Shown here one piece after another: positions 34,341 to 62,225 of a stretch of 64,000 bases of DNA. The notes beneath the pieces are model-generated. The model did no database searches. It had not been told where the DNA came from and saw nothing but the letters and a program-made list of their open reading frames with translations. The stretch is from an uncultured Candidatus Saccharibacteria bacterium (GTDB lineage: Bacteria > Patescibacteriota > CPR2 > UBA1875 > CAIMLA01). Within the stretch, counting starts at the first letter, position 1. Every line of letters begins with the position of its first letter. The DNA is taken from NCBI GenBank assembly GCA_964594415.1, contig CAZQLQ010000001.1, positions 159,265-223,264 on the forward strand, written 5' to 3'. Position numbers and translations under genes: made by a program.

Positions 34341-34369
34341 TTGAAAGACTGCTCTTTTTGTGCTAAAAT
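34341..34369 (+). promoter_or_regulatory. Consensus sigma-70-type promoter with extended -10 (TTGAAA-17-TGcTAAAAT)
   Basis: Read directly: TTGAAA ... TGTGCTAAAAT, 17-nt spacer. The same architecture recurs at six downstream cassettes. Confidence 0.6.
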
Positions 34370-48029: not shown

Positions 48030-48240
48030 CTTGCCCGAACCTGTAAGGGGCGGGAAGGGTCTCTTTTACTTGTCATCCTCGTGCTTGACACGGGGATCTC
48101 TCTTCTCCTTGTCATTCTGTCCGACGACTCCGATGAGTTCGTGTCGGACTCCGTCGGAGAGCGAAGTCGAAGAATCTCGAGATCCTTCATTACATTCAGG
48201 ATGACATTGTATTTATTGTTCGAGCGCAGCGAGAACTATT
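48030..48240. repeat. Mosaic palindromic repeat cluster R2
   Basis: Contains TGCCCGAACCTGTAAGGGGCGGG unit, GTCATCCTCGTGCTTGACACGGGGATC, the 68-bp GTCATTCTGTCCGACG...GAATCTCG unit and CATTCAGGATGACATTGTATTTATTGTTCGAGCGCAGCGAGAAC unit. Confidence 0.8.
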
Positions 48241-49927: not shown

Positions 49928-50278
49928 ATGGACAAAATAGAAGATTTACAGCAAAAAGTTGCAAAATTTAGAGATGACAGAGATTGGCAGCAATTTCATA
50001 ATCCTAAAGACTTAGCGATTGCGATATCTATTGAGGCGTCTGAATTACTAGAATGCTTTAGATGGAAGTCTATAAAAGAAGTTGAAGAATTTATGAAATC
50101 TGAAAAGTCTACCAGCGTGGAAGAGGAAATGGCGGACGTTCTTATTTTGCTCTTAAATCTGGCCGATACAACTGGGATTGATGTCGTAAAAGCGGCAAAC
50201 GATAAACTAGATGCAAATAATAAAAAATACCCTGTAGAAAAATCTAAGGGTAGCGCTAAGAAGTATACGGAGCTTTAA
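49928..50278 (+). CDS. MazG-like nucleoside triphosphate pyrophosphohydrolase (small, single domain)
   Basis: EASELLECFRW and EEEMADVLILLLNLA helices typical of the all-alpha NTP-PPase (MazG/YpjD) fold. Confidence 0.7.
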   Translation: MDKIEDLQQKVAKFRDDRDWQQFHNPKDLAIAISIEASELLECFRWKSIKEVEEFMKSEKSTSVEEEMADVLILLLNLADTTGIDVVKAANDKLDANNKKYPVEKSKGSAKKYTEL

Positions 50279-52146
50279 TGAGATTATATGAGGCATCGCT
50301 GGCTGATTTTAATAGGGACATAACTTATAATAAAATTACTGATATTCTAACTGAAGCATTTAGTTTTTTTTATAAAAAAGAACCCACAATTGGCGAAAAA
50401 CTATCTTGGACAAATTCTTTGAGACAGGTAAGGGACGTTCTTACTGAAGCCAAATTAACAGACAATTACATAGCGATTGAAACTGAGGTGCCCTATACCT
50501 CAAGAAGAATAGATGTACTTTTGTTTGGTAGGAATCAACAAAAAGGCGATAACATCGTTCTTATTGAGCTTAAACAATGGGATAATTCTGGAGTGTTGGA
50601 TTCAGAAATAGATGGTAATGTTTATGTAAAATACAGAAACGGCTTCAGCGAAGAGCCTCATCCTAGTTTGAAAGTAGAGGGATATCATTATGGATTGATT
50701 GACAATTACTCAATTTTTGAAGAACAGCCGCCTGTAAGTTTAGTTTCTTGCGTATTTTGTCATAATTATTCAAGGACGGCAGCAAGTCAAGTCTTGTTCA
50801 ATAACAAATTTTCTGAATATACAGAAAAATACCCGGTTTTTACAAAAGAGCAGGTTCAGGAACTGGGGAATTACTTAACACTGAGGTTAGCCGGAGGCGC
50901 TGGACTAGAAGTCTTTAATAGATTTATAACGAGTAATATAAGGCCATCCAAGAAACTACTTGATCACACTTCAGATATGATTCACAAGCAGCAAATATTT
51001 AATCTTATTGATGATCAAATTACTGCATATAATGCCATTAGGTCAGTATCTAATAAGCTGGCAAAATTAGATGAAAAGTCAGTTTTTATTATAAAAGGTG
51101 GCCCAGGAACAGGGAAATCTGTTATTGCTTTGGAGGTTTTGGGCGAATTACTAAGGAAAGGTTTTAACGCTTTTTATTTAACTGGCTCAAAGTCATTTAC
51201 TGAGACTCTGAGGAAAATTGTGGGCGTAAGAGCGAAAGACAGAATTAAATATTTTAATAGTTACAGAGATTATAAGGGCCCGCAAATTGATGTGTTTGTT
51301 TGTGACGAGGCTCATCGCATTAGAGAAAAAAGCAAAAAGATGTTTGATAGAAATGAGATTATTGACCAGTTACCTCCTCAAATAGATGAGATCTTGAAAG
51401 CAAGTAAAATGTCTATCTTTTTGATAGACGAAAAACAAACAGTTCGACCGGATGAAGTTGGAAGTGTTAGTATGATCAAAGAGGCCGCGATTAGAAATGG
51501 AGTTCTGCAGAAGAATATAAGGGAATACGAATTAACGACCCAATTTAGATGTAATGGGTCTGATTCTTATATTCAATGGCTAGACAATACTCTGCAGCTA
51601 GCAGATACTGATAAAGTTACTTTAGAGAAAAGTGATAAATATGATTTTAAAATTTTTTATACACCCCAATTGCTTAAAAGTGCTATTGAAGAAAAAAACA
51701 AGATAAAAGAAAATTCTTCACGTCTCGTAGCGGGTTTTTGTTGGCCATGGAGCGAACCGCTTGAGGACGGCTCCTTGGTTGATGATGTTATCATTGGCGA
51801 TTTTAAGATGCCCTGGGAAGATAAGAGAAATTTTTGGAAATGGGCCACAGACAAAAGCGGCATGGAACAGGTTGGAACAGTATACACCTCCCAAGGTTTT
51901 GAATTTGACTATATAGGTGTTATCTTTGGTCCAGACTTAACTTATAATAACAAAACAAAAAATTGGGAAGCACACCCAGATCTTTCTCACGATTCTATGT
52001 TAATAAGAAATAACGACAAAATAAAAGAACATCTGAAAAATGTTTACAGAGTTTTAATGTCTAGGGGAATGAAGGGTTGTTATGTGTATTTTATGGATAA
52101 AGAAACTGAAAAATATTTTCGTGATAGGTTGAATCTAGCCGAATAG
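50278..52146 (+). CDS. DUF2075/Schlafen-like nuclease-helicase: N-terminal PD-(D/E)xK nuclease plus SF1-like P-loop ATPase
   Basis: IDVLLF...IVLIELKQW (D...ExK), Walker A GGPGTGKS, Walker B VCDEAHR, C-terminal SQGFEFDYIGVIFG. Translationally coupled to the MazG-like gene (stop/start overlap). Confidence 0.8.
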   Translation: MRLYEASLADFNRDITYNKITDILTEAFSFFYKKEPTIGEKLSWTNSLRQVRDVLTEAKLTDNYIAIETEVPYTSRRIDVLLFGRNQQKGDNIVLIELKQWDNSGVLDSEIDGNVYVKYRNGFSEEPHPSLKVEGYHYGLIDNYSIFEEQPPVSLVSCVFCHNYSRTAASQVLFNNKFSEYTEKYPVFTKEQVQELGNYLTLRLAGGAGLEVFNRFITSNIRPSKKLLDHTSDMIHKQQIFNLIDDQITAYNAIRSVSNKLAKLDEKSVFIIKGGPGTGKSVIALEVLGELLRKGFNAFYLTGSKSFTETLRKIVGVRAKDRIKYFNSYRDYKGPQIDVFVCDEAHRIREKSKKMFDRNEIIDQLPPQIDEILKASKMSIFLIDEKQTVRPDEVGSVSMIKEAAIRNGVLQKNIREYELTTQFRCNGSDSYIQWLDNTLQLADTDKVTLEKSDKYDFKIFYTPQLLKSAIEEKNKIKENSSRLVAGFCWPWSEPLEDGSLVDDVIIGDFKMPWEDKRNFWKWATDKSGMEQVGTVYTSQGFEFDYIGVIFGPDLTYNNKTKNWEAHPDLSHDSMLIRNNDKIKEHLKNVYRVLMSRGMKGCYVYFMDKETEKYFRDRLNLAE

Positions 52147-52152
52147 AGTAAA

Positions 52153-52839
52153 ATGAAAGATATTTTAAAATATACAGAATTAACATCGAAAGAAAACTTG
52201 CCACTTCAAAAAGGTATGAATTTCAGGCCTTCTGGAAAGTCGTATTCTATTTTGTTGATGTCGGTAAGAAAAAATTCTCCGTATAACGACGGATTTGATG
52301 AAAATAATAATCTTGTTTATGAAGGGCATGATGTTTCAAAAAGACAAGGTATTGATCCTAAAAAATTAGACCAGCCAATGTTTAATTTAACAGGAACACT
52401 TACTGATAATGGTAAATTTTATAAAGCAGCAGAGGATTACAAACTATCTAGAAAAAATAAAGAAAAAATTCAGGTTTATGAAAAAATAAATGATGGAATG
52501 TGGTCTGATAAGGGCATGTATTATTTAATTGATGCAAGAACGGAGTTTTCGGAGACAGAGAAAAGAAAAGTCTTTAAGTTTGTCTTATCCCCAATCGAAT
52601 CATATTCTACTGATATAGAGGAAATAGTTGAAGACTTTGAATTTTCCCGTAGAATTCCAACTGTTATTAAGCAGAAAGTGTGGCAAAGAGATAATGGCAA
52701 GTGTGTAGAATGCGGTTCAAAAGATGATTTGCACTTTGATCACATCATCCCATTTTCTAAAGGAGGGTCTAGTTTAACTGAAAGTAATGTTCAGATTTTG
52801 TGCAGAAAATGTAATTTAAAAAAATCAGCAAAAATTTAG
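52153..52839 (+). CDS. HNH endonuclease with about 150-aa uncharacterised N-terminal domain
   Basis: C-terminal CVECGSKDDLHFDHIIPFSKGG...CRKCNLKK = HNH with Cys4 zinc. N-terminal domain unassigned. Confidence 0.75.
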   Translation: MKDILKYTELTSKENLPLQKGMNFRPSGKSYSILLMSVRKNSPYNDGFDENNNLVYEGHDVSKRQGIDPKKLDQPMFNLTGTLTDNGKFYKAAEDYKLSRKNKEKIQVYEKINDGMWSDKGMYYLIDARTEFSETEKRKVFKFVLSPIESYSTDIEEIVEDFEFSRRIPTVIKQKVWQRDNGKCVECGSKDDLHFDHIIPFSKGGSSLTESNVQILCRKCNLKKSAKI

Positions 52840-52991
52840 TTATTAATCAGAATTAGGTAAAAATGGCACTGGAAAAAAAATCAGTCAAATAATGAGTTTA
52901 CATCTGTCCTTGCGGGGGTGGCAGGGGAGTATTTTAAGAGTAGATTAAAACCATCTTGTTTGCTATAATAACGAAAATATGAGGAAATCAG

Positions 52992-53987
52992 ATGACTACT
53001 AATCGAATAACCGACTTAATAACTGAGCTTGAAGAAGATAGAAAATCTAAGGTTATAGTTTACTTTACTAGTGACAAGCAACCAAACGAACATTTTGGAA
53101 CCCAAGTACATCCTGAGCAGCTTGTTTATTTTCGTAAAATCTTAGAAGAAATAAAAAAAACGGAAAGAATAACTCTGGTTTTGGATACTAGAGGAGGTGC
53201 AATAGATATGCCTTGGCCCCTAGTTAATTTGATTAGAGAATATTGTAAAAAATTTGAAGTAATTATTCTAGAAAAGGCACTTAGTGCTGGAACATTGATA
53301 GCCTTAGGTGCAGATAAAATTGTCATGCAACCATTTTCACATTTAAGCCCTGTTGATCCCGCCACCTTTATCCCAGATGGTAATTCAAGTATTCTAAAGA
53401 AACTCGAAATAGAAGACATAATAGGTTTTATAGATTTTGCTAAGGAAAAAGTTGGCATTGCAGAACAGTCTTCGTTAACAGAAGTTATGAAAGAGCTAAC
53501 TAAGGAAGTTCGTCCGACGTTATTGGGTTCAGTAAATAGAACATACGCACTGATTAGAAAACTTGCTAGACAGCTCCTGTCTTTGCATAATGGAAAATTA
53601 ACGGAAAAACAAGTAAACGAGATTACCGAGCATTTGACACAGAAGCTTTATTCTCATAGTTATTTAATAAATAGGAAAGAAGCAAAAGAAATTATCGGCT
53701 TTGGCAATATTATTGAAAATTCTTCGGAAAATACGAAAAGGATTTCAAAGGATATAATGGATTATTATAGAGAAGTCATGGAAATTGAAAAAGATTTTGA
53801 CCCATTATATTTACTCTCCGAAAAAGAAACAGTTGACTGCAAGGTAGTCGGGGCAGCCATACATAGCAATACAATGAGATATTCCTTCAGCCATAAGATT
53901 AGGCTTACAAAAATCCCAGATCCGGCTGGTAGGCTAAATATTAATTTCGAGATACTAGAAAGAAAGTGGTCGGAAGAGAAAATTTAA
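52992..53987 (+). CDS. ClpP/SppA-fold serine peptidase (SDH-family-like)
   Basis: VLDTRGGAID...ALSAGTLIALGADKIVM resembles ClpP-fold nucleophile region. C-terminal alpha-helical extension. Confidence 0.5.
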   Translation: MTTNRITDLITELEEDRKSKVIVYFTSDKQPNEHFGTQVHPEQLVYFRKILEEIKKTERITLVLDTRGGAIDMPWPLVNLIREYCKKFEVIILEKALSAGTLIALGADKIVMQPFSHLSPVDPATFIPDGNSSILKKLEIEDIIGFIDFAKEKVGIAEQSSLTEVMKELTKEVRPTLLGSVNRTYALIRKLARQLLSLHNGKLTEKQVNEITEHLTQKLYSHSYLINRKEAKEIIGFGNIIENSSENTKRISKDIMDYYREVMEIEKDFDPLYLLSEKETVDCKVVGAAIHSNTMRYSFSHKIRLTKIPDPAGRLNINFEILERKWSEEKI

Positions 53988-54215: not shown

Positions 54216-54710
54216 ATGTACATTCCCAGTCACGAACTAGATAGAGGTAAATTTTATCAAGGGGATGTCGTAAAAGATTTCCCCTTTTTTGTATTGTCCA
54301 ACTTAGAAGATCAATTATCTATATTAACAAATACAAGAGAGGGTACGCTAGAAATTAAATCTAAACTTATAGATGTTATGATTCTTTCGCAAACTTGTGA
54401 TATACAAAGAAGAGACCAGATTATTATTGCTCCAATAGTCCCAATGCAACCGAGTATTGATAATGGTGACCTCGGAGTAAATATTTTGAACAATATTAAA
54501 AACCGTAAGATAAACTACTTGTTTTATTTACCGGAAAGTCCCGGAATAATTCCTGATTCATACTGTAATTTTCAGTTGATCTATTATGTTTCGCCCTTAT
54601 TATTAAATAATTTTATCAACAACAAAATTACATCTTTAAGTGATTGGGGTAGGCATCACCTTAGTTGGTCTCTTAGTAACTATTTTGGAAGACCAATTTT
54701 AAGTAAATGA
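54216..54710 (+). CDS. Hypothetical protein
   Basis: ORF, tightly packed after previous. Confidence 0.4.
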   Translation: MYIPSHELDRGKFYQGDVVKDFPFFVLSNLEDQLSILTNTREGTLEIKSKLIDVMILSQTCDIQRRDQIIIAPIVPMQPSIDNGDLGVNILNNIKNRKINYLFYLPESPGIIPDSYCNFQLIYYVSPLLLNNFINNKITSLSDWGRHHLSWSLSNYFGRPILSK

Positions 54711-54765
54711 CGAATACCAAATAATAAGCGACTTTTTGAGAAATAAATATTTTAAAAACATAAAG

Positions 54766-55083
54766 ATGTATATAATGCGACTTCAAAAATCTAATTTAGA
54801 AAAAGCGGAAGCTTTTGTGGAGTCGGTTGAGTGGATATTTGCTAAGACTTATGCAAAGACGGCTCCGCATGAATATATAGTGAAGAGATATCTGCCCAAA
54901 GAAAAGTGGGACGAATTTTTGTGGTTTGCCCGGCTTATCAGAGAAGAAGGGTATGATGGGAAATTTTATGACCATACCTATAGATACCTGGACATCGATG
55001 GTAAGAAATATTGGACTATGGATGAGGATGTCGAAATGACTGAGCTGATAAATAGGTGTGATGTCGGGGATGAGTATGAATAA
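54766..55083 (+). CDS. Hypothetical protein
   Basis: ORF. ATG at 54766 preferred over 54736. Confidence 0.35.
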   Translation: MYIMRLQKSNLEKAEAFVESVEWIFAKTYAKTAPHEYIVKRYLPKEKWDEFLWFARLIREEGYDGKFYDHTYRYLDIDGKKYWTMDEDVEMTELINRCDVGDEYE

Positions 55084-55522
55084 TTTAACTAAAGAAATTT
55101 TTGATGCGATAAAAAACGGAAAAAATGTTTTTCTTGTTGGGGCTACGGATAGCGGTAAAAGCTGGTTTTTACAAAATGAGATTATCCCTTTTCTAAGGGA
55201 AAATAATTATAAGGTTTGTTATCTTGAGGATAGTCTAGCCGATAGTCATATTTCAGAAAACTGCGATATTGTTATCGCCGATGAATATGAAACATTTGTC
55301 GATAAAGACTTTCTAGAAAAAAGACACCCCGAAGAAGTCCCATACTACTCTGGTTCATATATAAAACAGGTCAATAATTGTCAGAAAACATTAGGAAACG
55401 CAAGGTTTCCTGTAGTTTTTGTTATAACAAGAAATGAAGACGTGGAAATCGATTATCTAGTGAATAAGATAAGTGAGGAATATTCAGATTCTTTGGTTGC
55501 CCTGAAGATGACTAGGAAATAG
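55058..55522 (+). CDS. Small P-loop NTPase
   Basis: Walker A GATDSGKSW and Walker B IVIADEYE. Confidence 0.5.
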   Translation: MMSGMSMNNLTKEIFDAIKNGKNVFLVGATDSGKSWFLQNEIIPFLRENNYKVCYLEDSLADSHISENCDIVIADEYETFVDKDFLEKRHPEEVPYYSGSYIKQVNNCQKTLGNARFPVVFVITRNEDVEIDYLVNKISEEYSDSLVALKMTRK

Positions 55523-55605
55523 ATCCCAGGGTTTCCTCTAGAAGCGGACAAGTGCGACCAGGAATGACACAAATTCGTCAGGGATGATATACTCTATATT
55601 AGAGT
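55523..55605. repeat. Repeat cluster R4 (short)
   Basis: GATCCCAGGG..., CCAGGAATGACACAAATTCGTCAGGGATGAT: same GGAATGAC / GGGATG unit ends. Confidence 0.6.
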
Positions 55606-55621
55606 TAATTGGAGGGAAAAT

Positions 55622-55897
55622 ATGAAAAAAATAATAAGAATTTTTTCAATTTGCTTAGTGGTAACTTATCTTTTAGTGATTTCTTATCAAGCGTTTATTT
55701 GGCAACGTTATAAAACCCCAACTTTTATGAGCGATAGAGTGTTTTGTGATCTTGAAAGTAAACAAATACCTCCCACAAATACAGTATACGAAAAGGTATT
55801 TGGCAAAGCCTGTACTTGTTGTGGAGCGCCTACGCCCTTAACTTTGGCTGATGGAGTAAGGGGCTTTACTCAATTAATTTTTCTTGATTTTGAATAA
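55622..55897 (+). CDS. Small secreted/membrane protein with CTCCGAP motif
   Basis: GGAGGG RBS. N-terminal TM. Confidence 0.4.
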   Translation: MKKIIRIFSICLVVTYLLVISYQAFIWQRYKTPTFMSDRVFCDLESKQIPPTNTVYEKVFGKACTCCGAPTPLTLADGVRGFTQLIFLDFE

Positions 55898-55929
55898 AAT
55901 TAGTTTCAAGATCGTTTCTTCTAATAAAT

Positions 55930-56090
55930 AGGTATGATGACGGGGATGAGTATGAGTGGGGGATAGGGAATGAGATTCTTCCCGCCCCTTTCAGGTTCGG
56001 GCAGACGTCAGGCTCCCTTCGACTAACGCTCTCCGACGGAGTCCGACACGAACTCATCGGAGTCGTCGGACAGAATGACAAAAAGGAATA
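55930..56090. repeat. Repeat cluster R5 (contains reverse-complement of the 68-bp unit)
   Basis: CGACTAACGCTCTCCGACGGAGTCCGACACGAACTCATCGGAGTCGTCGGACAGAATGACA is the reverse complement of the unit in R1-R3. Also CCCGCCCCTTTCAGGTTCGGGCAG is the reverse complement of TGCCCGAACCTGAAAGGGGCGGG. Confidence 0.8.
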
Positions 56091-56093
56091 AAT

Positions 56094-56585
56094 ATGAATG
56101 AGAATTACATAAATGAATTAGAAGAATACATGATTTCGGTGTTGAAGGCTGGGAATAAGGGTAAGCCTCTTTCGATGCTCGCAAAATACAATTGCAGTGA
56201 GGTTTCGAGGCTCGTCGGTCTGAAGGTTCTTGAGTATCTAGGTGAAGATAGTAAGCCGTTTATACTAAAGGGTGAGGTGACTAAGAACGGAATAGATAAG
56301 GATAATATCCATGACATTTTAGGCTTTCTTGACGTTGATTCCTCAAAGTTCGTTCTTATTGATCCGACTATCTGGCAATTCTTCCCGGAAAGTGAAGAAA
56401 TTTTCTTGGGCGAATTTGAAGCGCTTGATGATGCAATTGCTTTCTGTGCTGATTTCTATGAAGGGGAGTGGAACTTTTCGGAATATGTAGACAAAGAGAG
56501 TGAAGACGTAAATGAGATGATGAAAATCATTAAGATGAATTGTGGCCAAGCCTCTGATTGGGAGAGAGATACAACCCAGGATTAG
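56094..56585 (+). CDS. Hypothetical acidic protein
   Basis: ORF between repeat clusters. Confidence 0.45.
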   Translation: MNENYINELEEYMISVLKAGNKGKPLSMLAKYNCSEVSRLVGLKVLEYLGEDSKPFILKGEVTKNGIDKDNIHDILGFLDVDSSKFVLIDPTIWQFFPESEEIFLGEFEALDDAIAFCADFYEGEWNFSEYVDKESEDVNEMMKIIKMNCGQASDWERDTTQD

Positions 56586-56589
56586 TAGG

Positions 56590-56830
56590 GGATGTATTGT
56601 TCGAGCTAAGGGAGAACTATTTATATTTAGGACTTCTCTCTGCGCTCGAAGAATAAAAATAGGGGAGGGGGCTAGATTCCAAACATCCTTCTTCGCCAAG
56701 GCTACGAAAGGACAAGTACGATTTGGAATGACACAGGGGAGTGAGGATTAGATTGCCGCGCTTCCAACTTCGCTAAAGCTTCGCTAGACAAGTCGCTCGC
56801 AATGACGATGAGGCGTGCAAGCAGGGGAAT
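56590..56830. repeat. Repeat cluster R6
   Basis: TATTGTTCGAGCTAAGGGAGAACTATTT, CTTCTCTCTGCGCTCGAAGAATAAAAAT and GATTTGGAATGACA units shared with R2, R7 and R8. Confidence 0.7.
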
Positions 56831-56885: not shown

Positions 56886-58511
56886 TTATGTTAGCCGGCC
56901 ATTTATTAATTCTATTGTTCGGTTTGGACGGATAGAGTCTATGAAATCTCTGTCGTGTGAAACAACGACGAAGGTTTCGGGATAAGTCTGAAGGGCTTTT
57001 TCTAGCTCTTCGATAGCTGGGATGTCCAGATGGTTTGTCGGTTCATCCAGGAGAAGTAAATTGGTGTTTTTATAGACTAGTGTTGCAAGAAGCAGTCTGG
57101 CACGTTCCCCAGGACTTAGACTCTTACCTTTTTGTTGGAGCTTTTCTTGGTCGAAGTTGAAGCTATGCAAGATGGTTCGCAACCTAGAGTCGTCGATAGG
57201 GCCGTCTTCTGAGGCAAGCTTCTTGGCGTTCTCGAGGGCTGAGATTTCTTCGTCAGGCAAACTCTTAAATTGGTCTATGAGGCCAATTTTCACTCCGTTC
57301 CCGAAACGAACATCTCCTTCTTCTGGGCTTTGCACTCCTTCGATAATCCGCAGTAGAGTCGTCTTACCACTGCCATTTGGGCCAGTGATTACGATTCGAT
57401 TTCCTCGCTCAATCATGAGATCGAGCGGACCGACATCGATCTTGGGATAATGGATTGTAACGTTTTTAAGCTCGACTAGAATATTGCTCACTTCGCCCTG
57501 GTGTCCGCTGAAGGCAAACTTCAGATTGATCTCTTTGAGCGGTTTCTGCGGTATCGCTAGCTGTTCTTCGCGAGTAGCTGTAGCTTTGGCGGTTGCAGAC
57601 AATCTACCTGCAGCCTTCTCTTTGGCCGAGTTTCTTCCTAACTTTTCAGTATCCGAAGCTTTCGAATTTGAATCTGCTCTCCTGGCTTCGTTGTGCAGTC
57701 TGCGACTTGTATCGCTTAGTCTTTTTCTCTCTTCCAGATATCTTTCGTAAGCCTCTTTCACTGATTTTTTTTGCGCTTCCCTCGCTTCTAAATATTCTTC
57801 GTATCCAAGCGAGTAGAGATCGATTCTAGATCCATCCGAGAGTAGTTCGGCAATTTTGGTCGTAACTGTTTTAAGCATTCGTCTGTCGTGAGTAACAATT
57901 ACAACAGCCGAGTTTGTGGAAAGCAGGAACGCTTCAAGAATCTCGATGCCTTCTAGATCCAAGTCGTTAGTCGGCTCGTCTAGCAAAAGAATGTCGAACT
58001 GCGACATAAGAATGGCCGCCAGCATTACGCGCTTGCGTTCACCGCCTGATAGGGTGCTGACAGGCTGTTCCAACAGACGAGTGTCGAGGGTAATTTTCTG
58101 CAATACTTTTTGAAGCCTCGTATCGAATGAATAAGTTCCAAGGTGTTCAACTTTTTCCATTGCTTGTTCGAGTCGGGAAAGAGATTCTTTGCTGGCATCA
58201 ACTTTCTCAGAAGCTTGTTCGAACTCAAGCTCGGCATCCATTATGCCAGTGAGCTTTTTGATGAATTCAACAACAGGTAGTTCGAGATGTTCTCTCGGTT
58301 CTTGAGGAAGGTAACCAACTATTAGATTGTCTCTGATTACTTTTCCAGACGACGGAAGGATTTCTCCAGCAATGATGCGGAGCAACGTGGTTTTTCCGGT
58401 TCCGTTAGGACCGATAAGTCCGATTCTTTCGCCCTCATTTATGATAAGCGAAATTCCTTTTAGAACCTCTCTAGTCTCATATTCGAATCGTACGTCGTCT
58501 ACTTTCAGCAT
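56886..58511 (-). CDS. ABC-F family ATPase (two ABC domains, charged interdomain linker, no TM domain)
   Basis: GPNGTGKTTLLRI / LSGGERKRVMLAAIL and GPNGSGKTTLLRI / LSPGERARLLLATL. R/K/E-rich linker between them. Confidence 0.85.
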   Translation of the reverse strand: MLKVDDVRFEYETREVLKGISLIINEGERIGLIGPNGTGKTTLLRIIAGEILPSSGKVIRDNLIVGYLPQEPREHLELPVVEFIKKLTGIMDAELEFEQASEKVDASKESLSRLEQAMEKVEHLGTYSFDTRLQKVLQKITLDTRLLEQPVSTLSGGERKRVMLAAILMSQFDILLLDEPTNDLDLEGIEILEAFLLSTNSAVVIVTHDRRMLKTVTTKIAELLSDGSRIDLYSLGYEEYLEAREAQKKSVKEAYERYLEERKRLSDTSRRLHNEARRADSNSKASDTEKLGRNSAKEKAAGRLSATAKATATREEQLAIPQKPLKEINLKFAFSGHQGEVSNILVELKNVTIHYPKIDVGPLDLMIERGNRIVITGPNGSGKTTLLRIIEGVQSPEEGDVRFGNGVKIGLIDQFKSLPDEEISALENAKKLASEDGPIDDSRLRTILHSFNFDQEKLQQKGKSLSPGERARLLLATLVYKNTNLLLLDEPTNHLDIPAIEELEKALQTYPETFVVVSHDRDFIDSIRPNRTIELINGRLT

Positions 58512-58599
58512 TACTTATCACCTCCTTTATTTATAATAACAAGGTACGCAACTGACATCAACCGAGTTCCTGCATTTTACAATAAAAAGCTATTTTTGT

Positions 58600-59808
58600 C
58601 TAGGTACACTTAGTGTTGTAATATTTTATAAAAGCAGAGATTCCATAAGGATCTTTGCTATAAACTTCGCCGTTAAATAAGTAAGCGCAGGCTTGGCATT
58701 CGGCTAATCCTTGTTTCCGAAAGTTAATAAAAGTCTCATTTTCTCGCCAATTCTTTACAAAGTTTTTATCAAATAAAGGCAGGTCTTCCTTTTTGTAATA
58801 ATCGGCTTCGTATAACAAGGCGCACGGCAACATATAGCCGTCTACGTCGATAGTTAGACCGCTAACTCCGGCGCGACAAACATCTCTCTTTACCCCCCTT
58901 AGGAATCCCTCGATTGCTGCGTTGGTAACGCCTGTCTTGACACCTTTTTGCTGTAGAGCGTATATCTCCATAATAAAATCAAAATATTTTTCTGGCTCAA
59001 TTACTAGGTCTTGATGCGAGCCTTTGAACGGCTTGAATAAATTGAAGTTGCAAGGACAGTCATGCTCCTGTGCAAATTCAATTAATTTTTTGTAATTTGG
59101 ATAGTTAAAATTGTTTAGAGTGCAGGAAATCTCGACATAAAAACCTTCTTTGCGGAGCTTGCTGATCGATTTCTCTACCTTTTCGAAGACTCCTTTTCCT
59201 CTAATCTCGTCGTTTATTTCTTTTATTCCTTCAAGGCTGACCAGGAAGGCTGGTTTGTTCTCCAATTTTTTTAATTTTTCGATAGTATCGTCATCTATTA
59301 ATGTGGCGTTTGTAATAATATTTACAGCGAATCCGTAATAATCGCAGGCTCTTTCTATGATTTTCATTGCGTCTTCGTGGAGAAAGATTTCTCCGCCGAC
59401 AAGATTGAGCATAAAAACTTTCTCTTTTGCCAGTAATGAAAGCCTATGGTCTATTTTCTCATAGCTAAGCAGTTTTGTGTAATCACCCTGAAAGCAGTGT
59501 TTGCATCTTAGATTGCAAGTGTTGCTGACCTGTATTTCTCCAGAAAGGGGAGTGTCAAAATAGTCTTTGTCTGGTACGGGATAGCTTAGCTGATCTTCTT
59601 TTAGGCTTTGCTTTATGTCTTCCAAGAAAGATTGTAGCTTCTCGGCATCTATCTTCAGCTCTTTTGATATTTCTTCAGCCGATTCCTCCATGTTGAAAAA
59701 CAGGTCTAGAATCCTAGACCCATCTTCGTTCACAAATACCAATTTCCTTATTTCCGGGAAAAAGGCTACCGTGTAGTCAGCATCTTTTCTTAATACTACT
59801 GTTTTCAC
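58600..59808 (-). CDS. Radical SAM / SPASM-domain peptide-modifying enzyme (GTG start)
   Basis: CNLRCKHCF (CxxxCxxC) radical-SAM cluster. C-terminal Cys-rich SPASM-like region (CPCNFN..., CRAGVSGLTIDVDGYMLPCALLYEAD). Confidence 0.85.
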   Translation of the reverse strand: MKTVVLRKDADYTVAFFPEIRKLVFVNEDGSRILDLFFNMEESAEEISKELKIDAEKLQSFLEDIKQSLKEDQLSYPVPDKDYFDTPLSGEIQVSNTCNLRCKHCFQGDYTKLLSYEKIDHRLSLLAKEKVFMLNLVGGEIFLHEDAMKIIERACDYYGFAVNIITNATLIDDDTIEKLKKLENKPAFLVSLEGIKEINDEIRGKGVFEKVEKSISKLRKEGFYVEISCTLNNFNYPNYKKLIEFAQEHDCPCNFNLFKPFKGSHQDLVIEPEKYFDFIMEIYALQQKGVKTGVTNAAIEGFLRGVKRDVCRAGVSGLTIDVDGYMLPCALLYEADYYKKEDLPLFDKNFVKNWRENETFINFRKQGLAECQACAYLFNGEVYSKDPYGISAFIKYYNTKCT

Positions 59809-59814
59809 GATAAT

Positions 59815-59958
59815 TTAGATTTTCTTTAATCTTTTTTCCGTTTTTGTGACTTTGTTTTTGGCCTCAAACTCTTGAACGCAAGGCTTGCCGCCGCAGCTTC
59901 GGAAGCAACATCCAGTCTCGCTATTTTCAGTGCTCTTTTTGATAACCTTAGGTTCCAT
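59815..59958 (-). CDS. Candidate RiPP precursor peptide, 47 aa, four Cys (not in ORF track)
   Basis: Hand translation of minus strand: MEPKVIKKSTENSETGCCFRSCGGKPCVQEFEAKNKVTKTEKRLKKI. GGGGGA RBS 7 nt upstream. Stop lies 6 nt before the rSAM/SPASM gene start. Confidence 0.5.
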   Translation of the reverse strand: MEPKVIKKSTENSETGCCFRSCGGKPCVQEFEAKNKVTKTEKRLKKI

Positions 59959-60243
59959 CTTTTTGTCCCCCAATTAATTATTGGCCGTATTGTATCTTTG
60001 AAATCTTTTGTTGTCAATAGTAATTTTCAGGTGAATACTTTCGCTACCCTTTATCATTTAGTCAAAGCGAAAATTCTTGAGGTCTATTACTTTTGGGTAA
60101 GCAGAGCGAGTATGAGAGGACTCTCGTTTTTTTGTTGAGGAAGGGTGTTTTTTGTGCTATAATCACGCCGGAATGTAAGGAGGATTCTACTATCTTGTAG
60201 ATTCCTTTTCGTTTAGGAACTGAAAAATAAAGGGGGTTACTAC

Positions 60244-60489
60244 GTGCTGGTAATCAGAAAAGTACTTGTCAAGATGTTCGGTTGGAAGCCGGTAGTAAAA
60301 AAGACGCATATCTTTGAGTGCTACGAAGCCGGTTCCCATAACGGGTTTTCATTGTGCGGAATATATGTTTCCGATAAGGATTCCTTAAGTGAAAAAGACG
60401 CAAAAGAATTAACGGGTAAAGAAGCGTCTACTTGCAAGAAGTGCGAAAAGATTTTGGAAAAAAGGCTCAAGGATGAGAAAAAGCAATAA
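60244..60489 (+). CDS. Small basic Cys4 protein, tandem paralog 1 (GTG start)
   Basis: KTHIFECY...SLCG...TCKKCEKILEKRLK. AAAGGGGG RBS. Confidence 0.5.
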   Translation: MLVIRKVLVKMFGWKPVVKKTHIFECYEAGSHNGFSLCGIYVSDKDSLSEKDAKELTGKEASTCKKCEKILEKRLKDEKKQ

Positions 60490-60503
60490 AGGAGGGATAT
60501 CTG

Positions 60504-60728
60504 ATGTACGTTGAATGGAAAACATTTGCAAGAATTTCTGGCAGTGATCTGGTTGTGAGAAAAACACATGCATTTGGGCCGCGTGGAAGATTGTGTTCGT
60601 GTTGCGGTCTTGTGGCGAGATCGAATGAAATGATACATGAACAAGTAGCCAGGGATGTGCTAAAGAAGCCGCCCAAAAGATGCAAAAAATGCGAAGCTGC
60701 CGTGAAGAAATTGCGCAAGCAAAGATAA
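60504..60728 (+). CDS. Small basic Cys4 protein, tandem paralog 2
   Basis: KTHAFGPRGRLCSCCG...RCKKCEAAVKKLRK. Identical AAAGGAGGGATATCTGATG leader to paralog 3. Confidence 0.5.
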   Translation: MYVEWKTFARISGSDLVVRKTHAFGPRGRLCSCCGLVARSNEMIHEQVARDVLKKPPKRCKKCEAAVKKLRKQR

Positions 60729-60744
60729 GCCAAAAAGCAGAAAA

Positions 60745-61029
60745 TTGACGGCAAAGGAGGGATATCTGATGAATTACGAAGCAAGAGTTCTTGTGAGGAT
60801 TTCCAGTTGGGAACTAATAGTTGGCAGGTCGCATTTAGTAACCGGGCAATATAACAATTATTCTCTTTGTGGACAACACTTGGGTTCAGGTAAATCGCTG
60901 AGCGAAAACGAAGCAAAGAGAGTGCTCAAAAAGCCGGTTGTCAGATGTAAGACATGCGAGAAAATCCTCGCAAAGAAAAAAGCCGAAGAAAAAGAACAGG
61001 CAAAGAAAAACAGAGCCAAAAGAGGCTGA
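60745..61029 (+). CDS. Small basic Cys4 protein, tandem paralog 3
   Basis: RSHLVTGQYNNYSLCG...RCKTCEKILAKKK. Confidence 0.5.
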   Translation: MTAKEGYLMNYEARVLVRISSWELIVGRSHLVTGQYNNYSLCGQHLGSGKSLSENEAKRVLKKPVVRCKTCEKILAKKKAEEKEQAKKNRAKRG

Positions 61030-61138: not shown

Positions 61139-61412
61139 TGTCACTCTGAGCGAAGTCGAAGAGTCTAGAGATCCTTCACTACGTTCAGGATGACATTGTA
61201 TTTATTGTTCGAGCAGCGAGAGAACCATTTTATTGAAAACTTCTCACTCCGTTCGAAGAATAAAATCCACGTCATCCCGAGCTTGTCGAGGGATCTCGGT
61301 CTTATAGATCCTTCGAATCGCTCCGCTCCCTCAGGATGACAAATAGTATATCGTTCGGGGCGAAGCAGAGAGATAGGTAGATCCCCGCGTCCGCGAGGAT
61401 GACATAAAATCT
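61139..61412. repeat. Repeat cluster R7
   Basis: GTCACTCTGAGCGAAGTCGAAGAGTC, CATTCAGGATGACATTGTATTTATTGTTCGAGCAGCGAGAGAAC, CTTCTCACTCCGTTCGAAGAATAAAAT, GTCATCCCGAGCTTGTCGAGGGATC, CCTCAGGATGACA, GATCCCCGCGTCCGCGAGGATGACA. Confidence 0.8.
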
Positions 61413-61446: not shown

Positions 61447-61965
61447 ATGAAAATGCCACAAAAACTTTTTACCGAACATTTGCTATTAAGGCCAGTCTCT
61501 CCAAAGTATTCGAGAGAAGTATTCACGAATTTTACCGACGAAGTAACGGCTATGATGTATCCTTCTACTCCTAAGGAAGAGCAAGAGACAATTGATTATC
61601 TTGTTGAAGCAGAAGAAAAGATGAGAGAAGGTATAAATTATCAAGTGTTAATTTTTCTTAAAGACACGGATGAATTTATAGGAGGAGCAGGAGTTCATCA
61701 TATTGACACTAAAACTCCTGAGTTTGGAATTTGGATAAAAAAATCTGCTCAAGGGCATAAATATGGTAGAGAAGCAGTTGTGGGACTAAAAGACTGGGCA
61801 GATAAGAATCTAGAGTATGATTATTTAAGATACCCGGTAGTAACTAGCAATACACCTAGTAGAAAAATTCCGGAGTTTCTCGGTGGAAAAGAAGTAAATG
61901 AATTTGATACAGAAAAGCAGGACGGAACTATAATGAAAATGGTAGAATATTATATTTTTAAATAG
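61447..61965 (+). CDS. GNAT family N-acetyltransferase (RimJ/RimL-like)
   Basis: TEHLLLRP start typical of RimL-type GNATs. Central acetyl-CoA-binding-like block. Preceded by TGTGCTAAAAT -10. Confidence 0.7.
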   Translation: MKMPQKLFTEHLLLRPVSPKYSREVFTNFTDEVTAMMYPSTPKEEQETIDYLVEAEEKMREGINYQVLIFLKDTDEFIGGAGVHHIDTKTPEFGIWIKKSAQGHKYGREAVVGLKDWADKNLEYDYLRYPVVTSNTPSRKIPEFLGGKEVNEFDTEKQDGTIMKMVEYYIFK

Positions 61966-61969
61966 CATC

Positions 61970-62225
61970 TATTGTTCGAATAAAATGAGAACTATTTTTA
62001 CTACAGACTTCTCTCTACGTTCGAAGAATAAAAATTGTCATTCTGAGCTTGTCGAAGAATCTAATCTGTTTTCTGCCACTTTTCCTTGATGAAAAGTGAC
62101 TCAAAAATCAAGAAAAACTGAACTCCTTTTTAAAAGATTATCCTTTTTTCGATATTCTGTAAGGTTTTCCTACAAGGAATAACTTTTTAAAATAGTCGGG
62201 CTACCGAGCCGAACAGTTTTTCGGG
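61970..62225. repeat. Repeat cluster R8
   Basis: CTTCTCTCTACGTTCGAAGAATAAAAAT, GTCATTCTGAGCTTGTCGAAGAATC, then a block colinear with R3 (CAAAAATCAAGAAAAACTGAACTC...GTCGGGCTACCGAGCCGAACAGTTTTTCGG). Confidence 0.8.

Follow-up and report, generated by a model that had tools for sequence, protein, structure and literature searches.

What would a bacterium make with a small cysteine-containing peptide, a radical S-adenosylmethionine (SAM) enzyme and an ABC-F ATPase whose genes lie side by side? Such an arrangement occurs on the minus strand of a 64,000-nucleotide stretch of contig CAZQLQ010000001.1, from an uncultured Candidatus Saccharibacteria bacterium; this whole stretch is called the window below. 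A preliminary description had proposed a locus for a peptide made on the ribosome and modified after translation (RiPP), and had speculated that the product might be directed at the ribosome. We find that the peptide, radical-SAM and ABC-F genes are kept together across 35-100% enzyme identity, in many uncultured genomes that are mostly Patescibacteria. We hypothesize, with slightly more confidence than doubt, that they form a three-gene cassette combining a radical-SAM-modified RiPP with a ribosome-protection gene, that is, a ribosome-targeting peptide with self-immunity. The features of the module in the window are as follows (RRE, RiPP recognition element).

56886-58511, minus strand: ABC-F ATPase of the ribosomal-protection type, 541 amino acids; presumed immunity factor
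58600-59808, minus strand: putative radical-SAM peptide maturase, 402 amino acids, GTG start, CNLRCKHCF
58600-58911, minus strand: C-terminal auxiliary-cluster domain of the enzyme, twitch-like; C311, C329 and C371 invariant
59494-59517, minus strand: CX3CX2C radical-SAM cluster motif, C98, C102 and C105; invariant in 67 family members
59599-59808, minus strand: N-terminal RRE of the enzyme, PqqD-like (residues 1-70; three strands followed by three helices in the modelled secondary structure)
59815-59958, minus strand: precursor peptide gene, 47 amino acids, ATG start; leader M-x-PKV-IKK, core, Lys-rich tail
59881-59919, minus strand: conserved core E14-T-G-C-C-F-R-S-C-G-G-K-P26; presumed modification site
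59989-60017, minus strand: promoter-like site TTGACA-17-TACAAT, 11/12 consensus positions, upstream of the precursor gene

The precursor peptide gene and its conservation

The 144-nt open reading frame (ORF) at 59815-59958 translates to MEPKVIKKSTENSETGCCFRSCGGKPCVQEFEAKNKVTKTEKRLKKI. Its ATG is preceded at a spacing of 6 nt by GGGGGA, taken as the ribosome-binding site, and its stop codon is separated by 6 nt from the GTG start of the radical-SAM gene, all as the preliminary description had reported. The promoter-like site upstream is the top-scoring one of the region, by consensus match only, and promoter-like sites as a whole are no more numerous there than expected from shuffling. No terminator-like sites were found between the minus-strand genes of the locus.

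A frame of this kind could have arisen by chance, in which case the enzyme beside it would have a non-peptide substrate. Short ORFs are plentiful in AT-rich sequence (GC is 38% here), the 10 kb around the locus hold 83 ORFs of at least 30 amino acids, a lone 47-codon ORF is not above chance, and the peptide has no family model. Length by itself proves nothing, and the case for a gene is therefore one of conservation, for which we used two independent samplings: an enzyme-first one, which started from radical-SAM homologues, and a peptide-first one, a motif scan of metagenome contigs with the pattern E[TS]GCC[FL][RT]SC. The peptide stood beside the radical-SAM gene in ten of the ten enzyme-first loci. 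At enzyme identities of 72, 68, 56, 44, 42, 41, 37 and 36%, a 47-70-residue ORF with the same core adjoined the enzyme every time, and in several of these loci it had already been called by the source's own gene caller. The peptide-first scan gave 48 confirmed metagenome loci. Peptide equivalents are present in 57 loci and comprise 41 distinct variants, that of the window included.

The core of the family is E-[ST]-G-C-C-[FL]-[RT]-S-C-G-G-x-P. Across the 41 variants no change is seen at E, G, C, C, S, C, G, G and P, and GG-x-P is found in 41/41 although it lies outside the scan pattern. The invariant residues are encoded by two to five different codons each, the invariant serine by both AGY and TCN. 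This synonymous codon variety, together with the invariance of GG-x-P beyond the pattern, points to purifying selection on the protein. The protein sequence is conserved while its codons change synonymously, a result reached from two independent starting points. This refutes the chance frame, to which we attach practically no credence, and on this comparative evidence the 47-residue ORF is a real gene. The preliminary description had put forward conservation of the short ORF and of its cysteine motif in homologous loci as a check, and both are conserved; the ORF listed at 59826-60017 on the same strand, which it had taken as an artefact, is in another frame, not the conserved one.

Two leader subtypes can be distinguished. 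The first, that of the window, has PK[IV][IL]KK with Lys-rich tails, and the second has KYxxPxxL...EPVETGCCLRSCGGSP with acidic tails. The acidic-tail subtype also occurs in bins not labelled as Patescibacteria, at loci L001 (CAVAJF010000037.1, an Eggerthellaceae bin) and L058 (GCA_052174015.1, Clostridium sp.; here the ABC-F gene is broken into three ORFs), which reflects either real spread or mis-binning. Only three cysteines are common to the whole family (C-C-x3-C). The fourth, in P-C-V, is restricted to the subtype of the window and a few others, and the four cysteines that had been considered available for cross-links are reduced to three family-wide.

No Pfam or NCBIfam model matched any of seven diverse precursors at E up to 1, and no copy of the peptide was found in the viral contigs scanned. 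A word-indexed protein search with the 47-residue peptide returned no match, and peptides of this size seem to be unindexed: the 53-residue peptide of L005 shares five 5-residue words with the query, yet was not returned. A genome scan with a single protein gave one locus only, L001.

The radical-SAM enzyme and its presumed chemistry

The enzyme scores 74.1 bits on Pfam PF04055 Radical_SAM (cut-off 29.5). Its family has about 117 members at 90% clustering, and almost every homologue that carries a source name belongs to the Patescibacteria (Parcubacteria, Pacebacteria, Moranbacteria, Falkowbacteria), a few being labelled Clostridia. In the AlphaFold model (predicted local distance difference test, 94.7), residues 5-70 form three strands and three helices, the RRE topology, and PF05402 PqqD is annotated on many of the homologues. 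Profile alignments with PDB structures start at positions 24-44, inside the modelled RRE, and the radical-SAM core begins near residue 90. By both profile and fold the closest PDB structures are SkfB, SuiB and CteB, all of them RRE-bearing peptide maturases; SkfB (6efn) is the best sequence match (2.5e-30, ~19% identity), and sulfatase maturase, viperin and MoaA rank lower. The RRE fold and these top matches are the reasons for considering the enzyme a peptide maturase. A grouping with sulfatase maturases, named in the preliminary description as an outcome that would count against a peptide substrate, was not obtained.

No NCBIfam model was reached by the enzyme, the best being the generic twitch-domain model NF033640 (81 vs 170 bits). 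A pyrroloquinoline quinone (PQQ) or mycofactocin pathway was considered and rejected: the MftC model gave 69 vs 265 bits, the NirJ model was far under its cut-off, and the loci are without recurrent accessory genes.

The C-terminal domain scores 20.8 bits on SPASM PF13186, under the cut-off of 21.5. In the 67-sequence alignment the invariant cysteines are C98, C102, C105, C311, C329 and C371; C374 and C401 of the window enzyme are not conserved, and the CX2CX5CX3C part of the seven-cysteine SPASM motif was not found in the alignment. The auxiliary cysteines are spaced C-x17-C-x41-C, which fits a twitch domain. Because only three C-terminal cysteines are invariant, the enzyme is predicted to hold no more than one auxiliary cluster, bound through three protein ligands, and a twitch-like domain fits better than a full SPASM. 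Thus the radical-SAM part of the earlier assignment stands and its SPASM-type domain does not, at least in full form.

The 47-residue peptide is most likely the substrate of the adjoining enzyme, since the motif occurs at every enzyme-first locus, 36 of the 41 peptide variants have the radical-SAM gene next to them, and the two genes of the window are so closely spaced. Three of the five exceptions lie at contig ends.

In L050 (4941-7343), the radical-SAM protein near a peptide with the same ESGCCLRSCGGSP core is a different one, with 23% identity and no RRE match seen, and an ABC-F gene is missing from the vicinity; this may be a second enzyme family that uses the same core.

We infer thioether cross-link chemistry by analogy with characterised maturases. 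The leader (PK[IV][IL]KK, or KYxxPxxL in the second subtype) would dock on the RRE, and the radical-SAM cluster would yield a 5'-deoxyadenosyl radical. The first auxiliary cluster of CteB has an open site that binds a substrate cysteine. Likewise, an auxiliary Fe–S cluster on C311, C329 and C371 could bind a core cysteine at a free coordination site, and at least one C–S (thioether) cross-link would be made within the E-to-P core, as in SkfB and CteB.

Among known systems, SkfB/SkfA and AlbA/subtilosin share with the module a short precursor, an RRE radical-SAM enzyme with a reduced (twitch-like) auxiliary domain, and cysteines as likely thioether donors. However, the SkfB and AlbA models are far under their cut-offs for the window enzyme, the core motif is another one, only three auxiliary cysteines are conserved, and an ABC-F or Erm protein stands in place of the exporter and immunity membrane protein. 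CteB/SCIFF and PapB are likewise RRE-radical-SAM maturases acting on a Cys-rich core. SCIFF, however, has six cysteines near the C-terminus and a maturase with a two-cluster SPASM domain, whereas here three or four cysteines lie mid-peptide and are followed by a long conserved tail, and the PapB model reaches 51 vs 340 bits. The earlier label of a SCIFF-like precursor is rejected on this cysteine pattern and on the missing match to any curated precursor model. On model scores, the system is not SCIFF and falls outside any curated radical-SAM maturase family and any named ABC-F subfamily.

Linked ribosome-protection genes and the proposed target of the peptide

The ABC-F protein has two PF00005 stretches and no membrane domain. 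Its translation contains the motifs GPNGTGKTT/LSGGERKR/LLLDEPTN and GPNGSGKTT/LSPGERAR/LLLDEPTN, and promoter-like sites also occur upstream of its gene, in agreement with the soluble tandem-ABC protein, downstream on the same strand and with its own promoter, that had been described. It reaches 421 bits on NF000355, the NCBI ribosomal-protection-like ABC-F model (cut-off 380), as compared with 297 on the EttA models (cut-offs 599 and 807), 302 on Uup (900) and 280 on PRK15064 (762); the EttA, Uup and YbiT models all stay far under their cut-offs. NF000355 is also the best match of ten out of ten representatives of the ABC-F clades (375-442 bits), nine of which pass its cut-off, the tenth scoring 375; none of the ten passes the EttA or Uup models. 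The inter-domain linker is ~27 residues longer than that of EttA, and among PDB structures the protein is about equidistant from EttA, PoxtA, Uup and YbiT. Judging from these scores, the ATPase is of the ribosomal-protection type, not EttA or Uup, and is presumed to be an immunity factor; the housekeeping EttA orthologue against which it was to be checked is not what the locus encodes.

Of the 41 peptide variants, 28 have an adjacent ABC-F gene, and the gene order varies, with six arrangements or more: peptide–radical-SAM–ABC-F, peptide–ABC-F–radical-SAM, peptide–radical-SAM–ABC-F(-), radical-SAM–ABC-F–peptide, ABC-F–radical-SAM–peptide and ABC-F(-)–peptide–radical-SAM. For six of the 13 variants that have no adjacent ABC-F gene, the contigs stop within ~1.5 kb of the peptide (L016, L021, L030, L036, L037, L056). 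Five others carry an Erm gene (L014, L015, L027, L032, L040), and of these L014, L027 and L040 also end within ~2.3 kb. There are two clear exceptions, L038, where a DUF2268 protease takes the place of ABC-F, and L050 with its different radical-SAM enzyme.

Erm-type 23S rRNA methyltransferases are the fourth most recurrent ORF cluster of the loci. They lie directly beside the radical-SAM gene in seven variants (L014, L015, L023/24, L026/27, L032, L033, L040), in both orientations and with 44-62% mutual identity. Four copies tested scored 248, 240, 226 and 208 bits on NF000499 (cut-off 212), compared with 142-175 on the KsgA model, and a true KsgA in L046 gave the opposite result (225 on KsgA, 147 on the Erm model). 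L032 has Erm with no ABC-F within reach, and L024 and L033 have both. The linkage of Erm to the peptide–radical-SAM pair is new here.

Several copies of the module appear decayed. The peptide of L040 (673-771) has an in-frame stop, and the radical-SAM gene is split or fragmentary in L026/L027, L032 (5189-6432) and L022 (438-851). As for the Erm gene beside decayed modules, L032 has a full-length copy, those of L027 and L040 run off the contig end, and that of L026 is patchy; in L022 the ABC-F gene looks full-length beside the fragmentary radical-SAM gene. These copies look like cases of producer-gene loss in which the protection was retained.

Methylation of A2058 by Erm and displacement of the drug by ABC-F proteins are the two classic routes of 50S protection. 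Producers of 50S-acting antibiotics often carry both, and ABC-F and Erm are their established self-resistance pair (TlrC/TlrA-D, LmrC/LmrB, OleB). The module resembles such producers (TlrC, OleB, CarA, SrmB or LmrC with Erm) in having an ABC-F protein and/or an Erm-type A2058 methyltransferase beside biosynthetic genes. The difference is that these producers are actinomycetes making polyketides or lincosamides, whereas here a ribosomal peptide is encoded, mostly in Patescibacteria, and the window ABC-F scores 301 vs 800 bits on the 'producer' subfamily model. LmrC is a documented example of a producer self-resistance ABC-F (PMC8546547). By analogy, the system may be seen as an RRE radical-SAM RiPP cassette of the SkfB/CteB kind joined to the self-resistance logic of macrolide and lincosamide producers.

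We rank a ribosomal target first mainly because two unrelated ribosome-protection families are tied to one peptide–enzyme pair. The mature peptide would bind close to the peptidyl-transferase centre or the exit tunnel of the large ribosomal subunit, and the ABC-F protein would protect the ribosomes of the producer by displacing it; in some lineages an Erm-type A2058 methyltransferase could give protection alongside ABC-F or in its place. The speculation of a ribosome-directed peptide gains independent support from the Erm genes of related loci, and it gains none from Erm in the window itself, which has no such gene.

To our knowledge, no radical-SAM RiPP with a ribosomal target has been reported. 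There is a precedent for a modified ribosomal peptide that plugs the 50S exit tunnel, in klebsazolicin and phazolicin, though these differ in having YcaO azole chemistry and dedicated export pumps and in lacking ABC-F or Erm immunity (reviewed in PMC7136475). Radical SAM, ABC-F and Erm all go unmentioned in that review, which covers translation-targeting RiPPs. We found no description of a peptide/radical-SAM/ABC-F system in the literature, in a coverage that is without most subscription journals and is no proof of novelty.

Several observations weigh against a self-immune, ribosome-targeting cassette. Besides the lack of Erm in the 64-kb window, clustering of all locus ORFs gave no conserved exporter, leader peptidase or other recurrent family. 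NF000355 is a broad model, and no cut-off of a named resistance subfamily is reached: Vga, Lsa, Msr, Sal, OptrA, CplR (304 vs 780 bits) and the TlrC/OleB producer type are all far under. ABC-F orthologues at 60% (P0126) and 53% (P0128) occur with no peptide or radical-SAM genes within 6 kb, and since such unlinked orthologues exist, the ABC-F gene may serve a separate function or count as an orphan immunity gene. The linked ABC-F clades are 31-36% identical to each other, no closer than they are to Rhodococcus ABC-Fs (38%), and pairwise scores do not establish that they are monophyletic. Finally, the proposed chemistry and target are drawn solely from analogy and gene neighbourhood. ABC-F and radical-SAM identities increase together (Pearson 0.66, a descriptive value only), and the overall pattern fits co-inheritance with occasional replacement and orphan immunity genes.

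L057 and the contig of P0128 are the ones that have an ABC-F orthologue (of the 53% and 60% pair) and lack the peptide and radical-SAM genes. On the P0128 contig another ABC-F gene, whose linker is the canonical ABC_tran_Xtn, lies 2 kb away, and directly upstream there is a GNAT gene (Acetyltransf_3), which echoes the GNAT gene at 61447-61965 of the window.

Candidate leader peptidases occur in single lineages or a few of them. M16 peptidases near the module were seen in three lineages (L004, 458-1747; L005, 8051-10684; L019, 3518-4459), a DUF2268 Zn-protease in one (L038, 1703-2359), and a HExxH-motif protein with no Pfam match in L016, L031 (3661-4401) and L050; none of the three types is found in the window. 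The M16 peptidase was rejected as a conserved leader protease on this distribution.

The same neighbourhoods could be read as resistance islands, in which the small ORF is a stalling leader peptide that induces ABC-F or Erm, and the radical-SAM enzyme modifies rRNA or a ribosomal protein in the manner of Cfr. The erm genes and the ABC-F genes of antibiotic resistance are classically preceded by leader ORFs, the peptide gene is directly upstream of ABC-F in four variants, and Cfr is indeed a radical-SAM resistance enzyme (PMC12887959). However, the enzyme studied here has an RRE and matches SkfB, SuiB and CteB, with no Cfr or RlmN among its family or PDB matches; the ORF is 47-70 residues long with a strictly conserved cysteine core and a leader motif; and its usual coupling partner is the radical-SAM gene rather than the resistance gene. 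We regard a resistance island as very improbable.

A modified peptide with a non-ribosomal role, such as a signal, a metal binder, a membrane-active bacteriocin or a peptide-derived cofactor, would make the presence of ABC-F and Erm incidental. We know of no ribosome binders among the characterised radical-SAM thioether peptides (SkfA, subtilosin, SCIFF), and the presence of M16 peptidases close to three loci is reminiscent of PqqF/G and AlbE/F. The ABC-F or Erm protein could then aid the translation of a difficult Cys-rich peptide, or simply share its regulation; housekeeping ABC-Fs help the translation of hard sequences (Chadani 2024, PMC11162784, as cited in PMC12992588). Against this stand the linkage of two unrelated 50S-acting families to the peptide–enzyme pair, its survival through at least six rearrangements, and, for a cofactor, the low mycofactocin and NirJ scores and the absence of PQQ and mycofactocin accessory genes from the loci. 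Such a role seems distinctly unlikely to us.

The modified peptide could also be an internal regulator of translation, acting on the cell's own ribosomes in slow growth or dormancy, with ABC-F reversing or tuning its effect. This possibility, which we hold to be unlikely but deserving of some weight, agrees with the lack of a conserved exporter or peptidase, with the existence of stand-alone ABC-F orthologues, and with the persistence of the module in very small genomes, the named homologues being nearly all Patescibacteria. Also, the peptide of the window's subtype is conserved and Lys-rich at its two termini, which recalls small RNA-binding proteins. The second subtype, however, has acidic tails, and an Erm protein that joins or replaces ABC-F suits protection of a target better than partnership with a regulator. 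Decayed peptide and enzyme genes beside intact Erm are, moreover, typical of a lost toxin with retained immunity. For these reasons we continue to favour the peptide with a self-immunity gene.

Other features of the window and meaning of the module

On the plus strand, opposite the module, lie three small genes (Z1-Z3), and repeats occur on either side of the region.

60149, plus strand: extended -10 box TTTTTGTGCTATAAT, upstream of Z1-Z3
60244-60489, plus strand: Z1, one of three paralogues with 31-40% identity
60504-60728, plus strand: Z2
60769-61029, plus strand: Z3
56592-56735, 61185-61357 and 61967-62062: dispersed intergenic repeat, core ACTTCTCnCTnCGnTCGAAGAATAAAA; weaker copy at 48211-48237, minus strand

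The preliminary description had counted the triplet as part of the locus, as basic proteins of a Cys4 type. The three paralogues are there, and they are basic (74-86 amino acids), but the conserved pattern is H...C(C)G...CxxC, not Cys4. Z2 and Z3 are preceded by the same exact 19-nt leader, AAAGGAGGGATATCTGATG (60488, 60753), and the promoter-type box of the shared intergenic region is present at 60149, both as claimed. Membership of the locus is a different matter: when co-occurrence with the maturase was checked, no homologues of Z1-Z3 were found in the 57 related loci. A profile search of 1.84 billion representatives found only four other small proteins of the family (and two spurious repeat proteins), and Pfam and PHROGs gave nothing significant. 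On this sequence evidence Z1-Z3 are a rare orphan family, neighbours rather than components of the module, and their proposed role as extra substrates or regulators is rejected.

The extended -10 box TTTTTGTGCTAWAAT occurs at 34355, 60149, 61426 and 62253, always on the plus strand, and three of these sites lie ahead of the Z1-Z3 operon, the GNAT gene and clpP; the box probably serves the organism as its strong promoter consensus. The intergenic repeat, perhaps MITE- or REP-like, is ~70-100 nt long, and no copies are expected by chance. Its copies do flank the region, as had been described for repeat clusters bracketing the locus, but the element is dispersed and, given the copy at 48211, not specific to this locus.

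A plus-strand run at 50278-53987 resembles a defence island, with a Schlafen-group-3-type helicase (PF09848; PADLOC matches AbiO, Nhi and PDC-S41), an HNH endonuclease and an SDH/ClpP-like serine protease, and is followed at 54216-56585 by four small ORFs that have no family match. For the module genes themselves PHROGs and PADLOC gave generic matches only, and an anti-phage reading of the module was dropped.

Finally, we consider it an even call whether the module represents the first known class of radical-SAM-modified peptides that bind the 50S subunit, a family centred on the Patescibacteria (candidate phyla radiation) and used by these ultra-small bacteria as a weapon against hosts and competitors or as a switch of the cell's own translation, with ABC-F and Erm proteins as antidotes. 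If so, it would be a new chemical class of translation inhibitor for which two resistance factors are already identified, an ABC-F lineage that is unclassified and a methyltransferase of the Erm type, and would be useful for antibiotic discovery and for tracing the origins of ABC-F and Erm resistance genes. The module is compact (~3.1 kb, three genes) and directly testable by heterologous expression. The module would then also count among the few conserved specialised-metabolite systems of the Patescibacteria, whose genomes are reduced and which depend on hosts; in such organisms the retention of any offensive or regulatory peptide would be informative.

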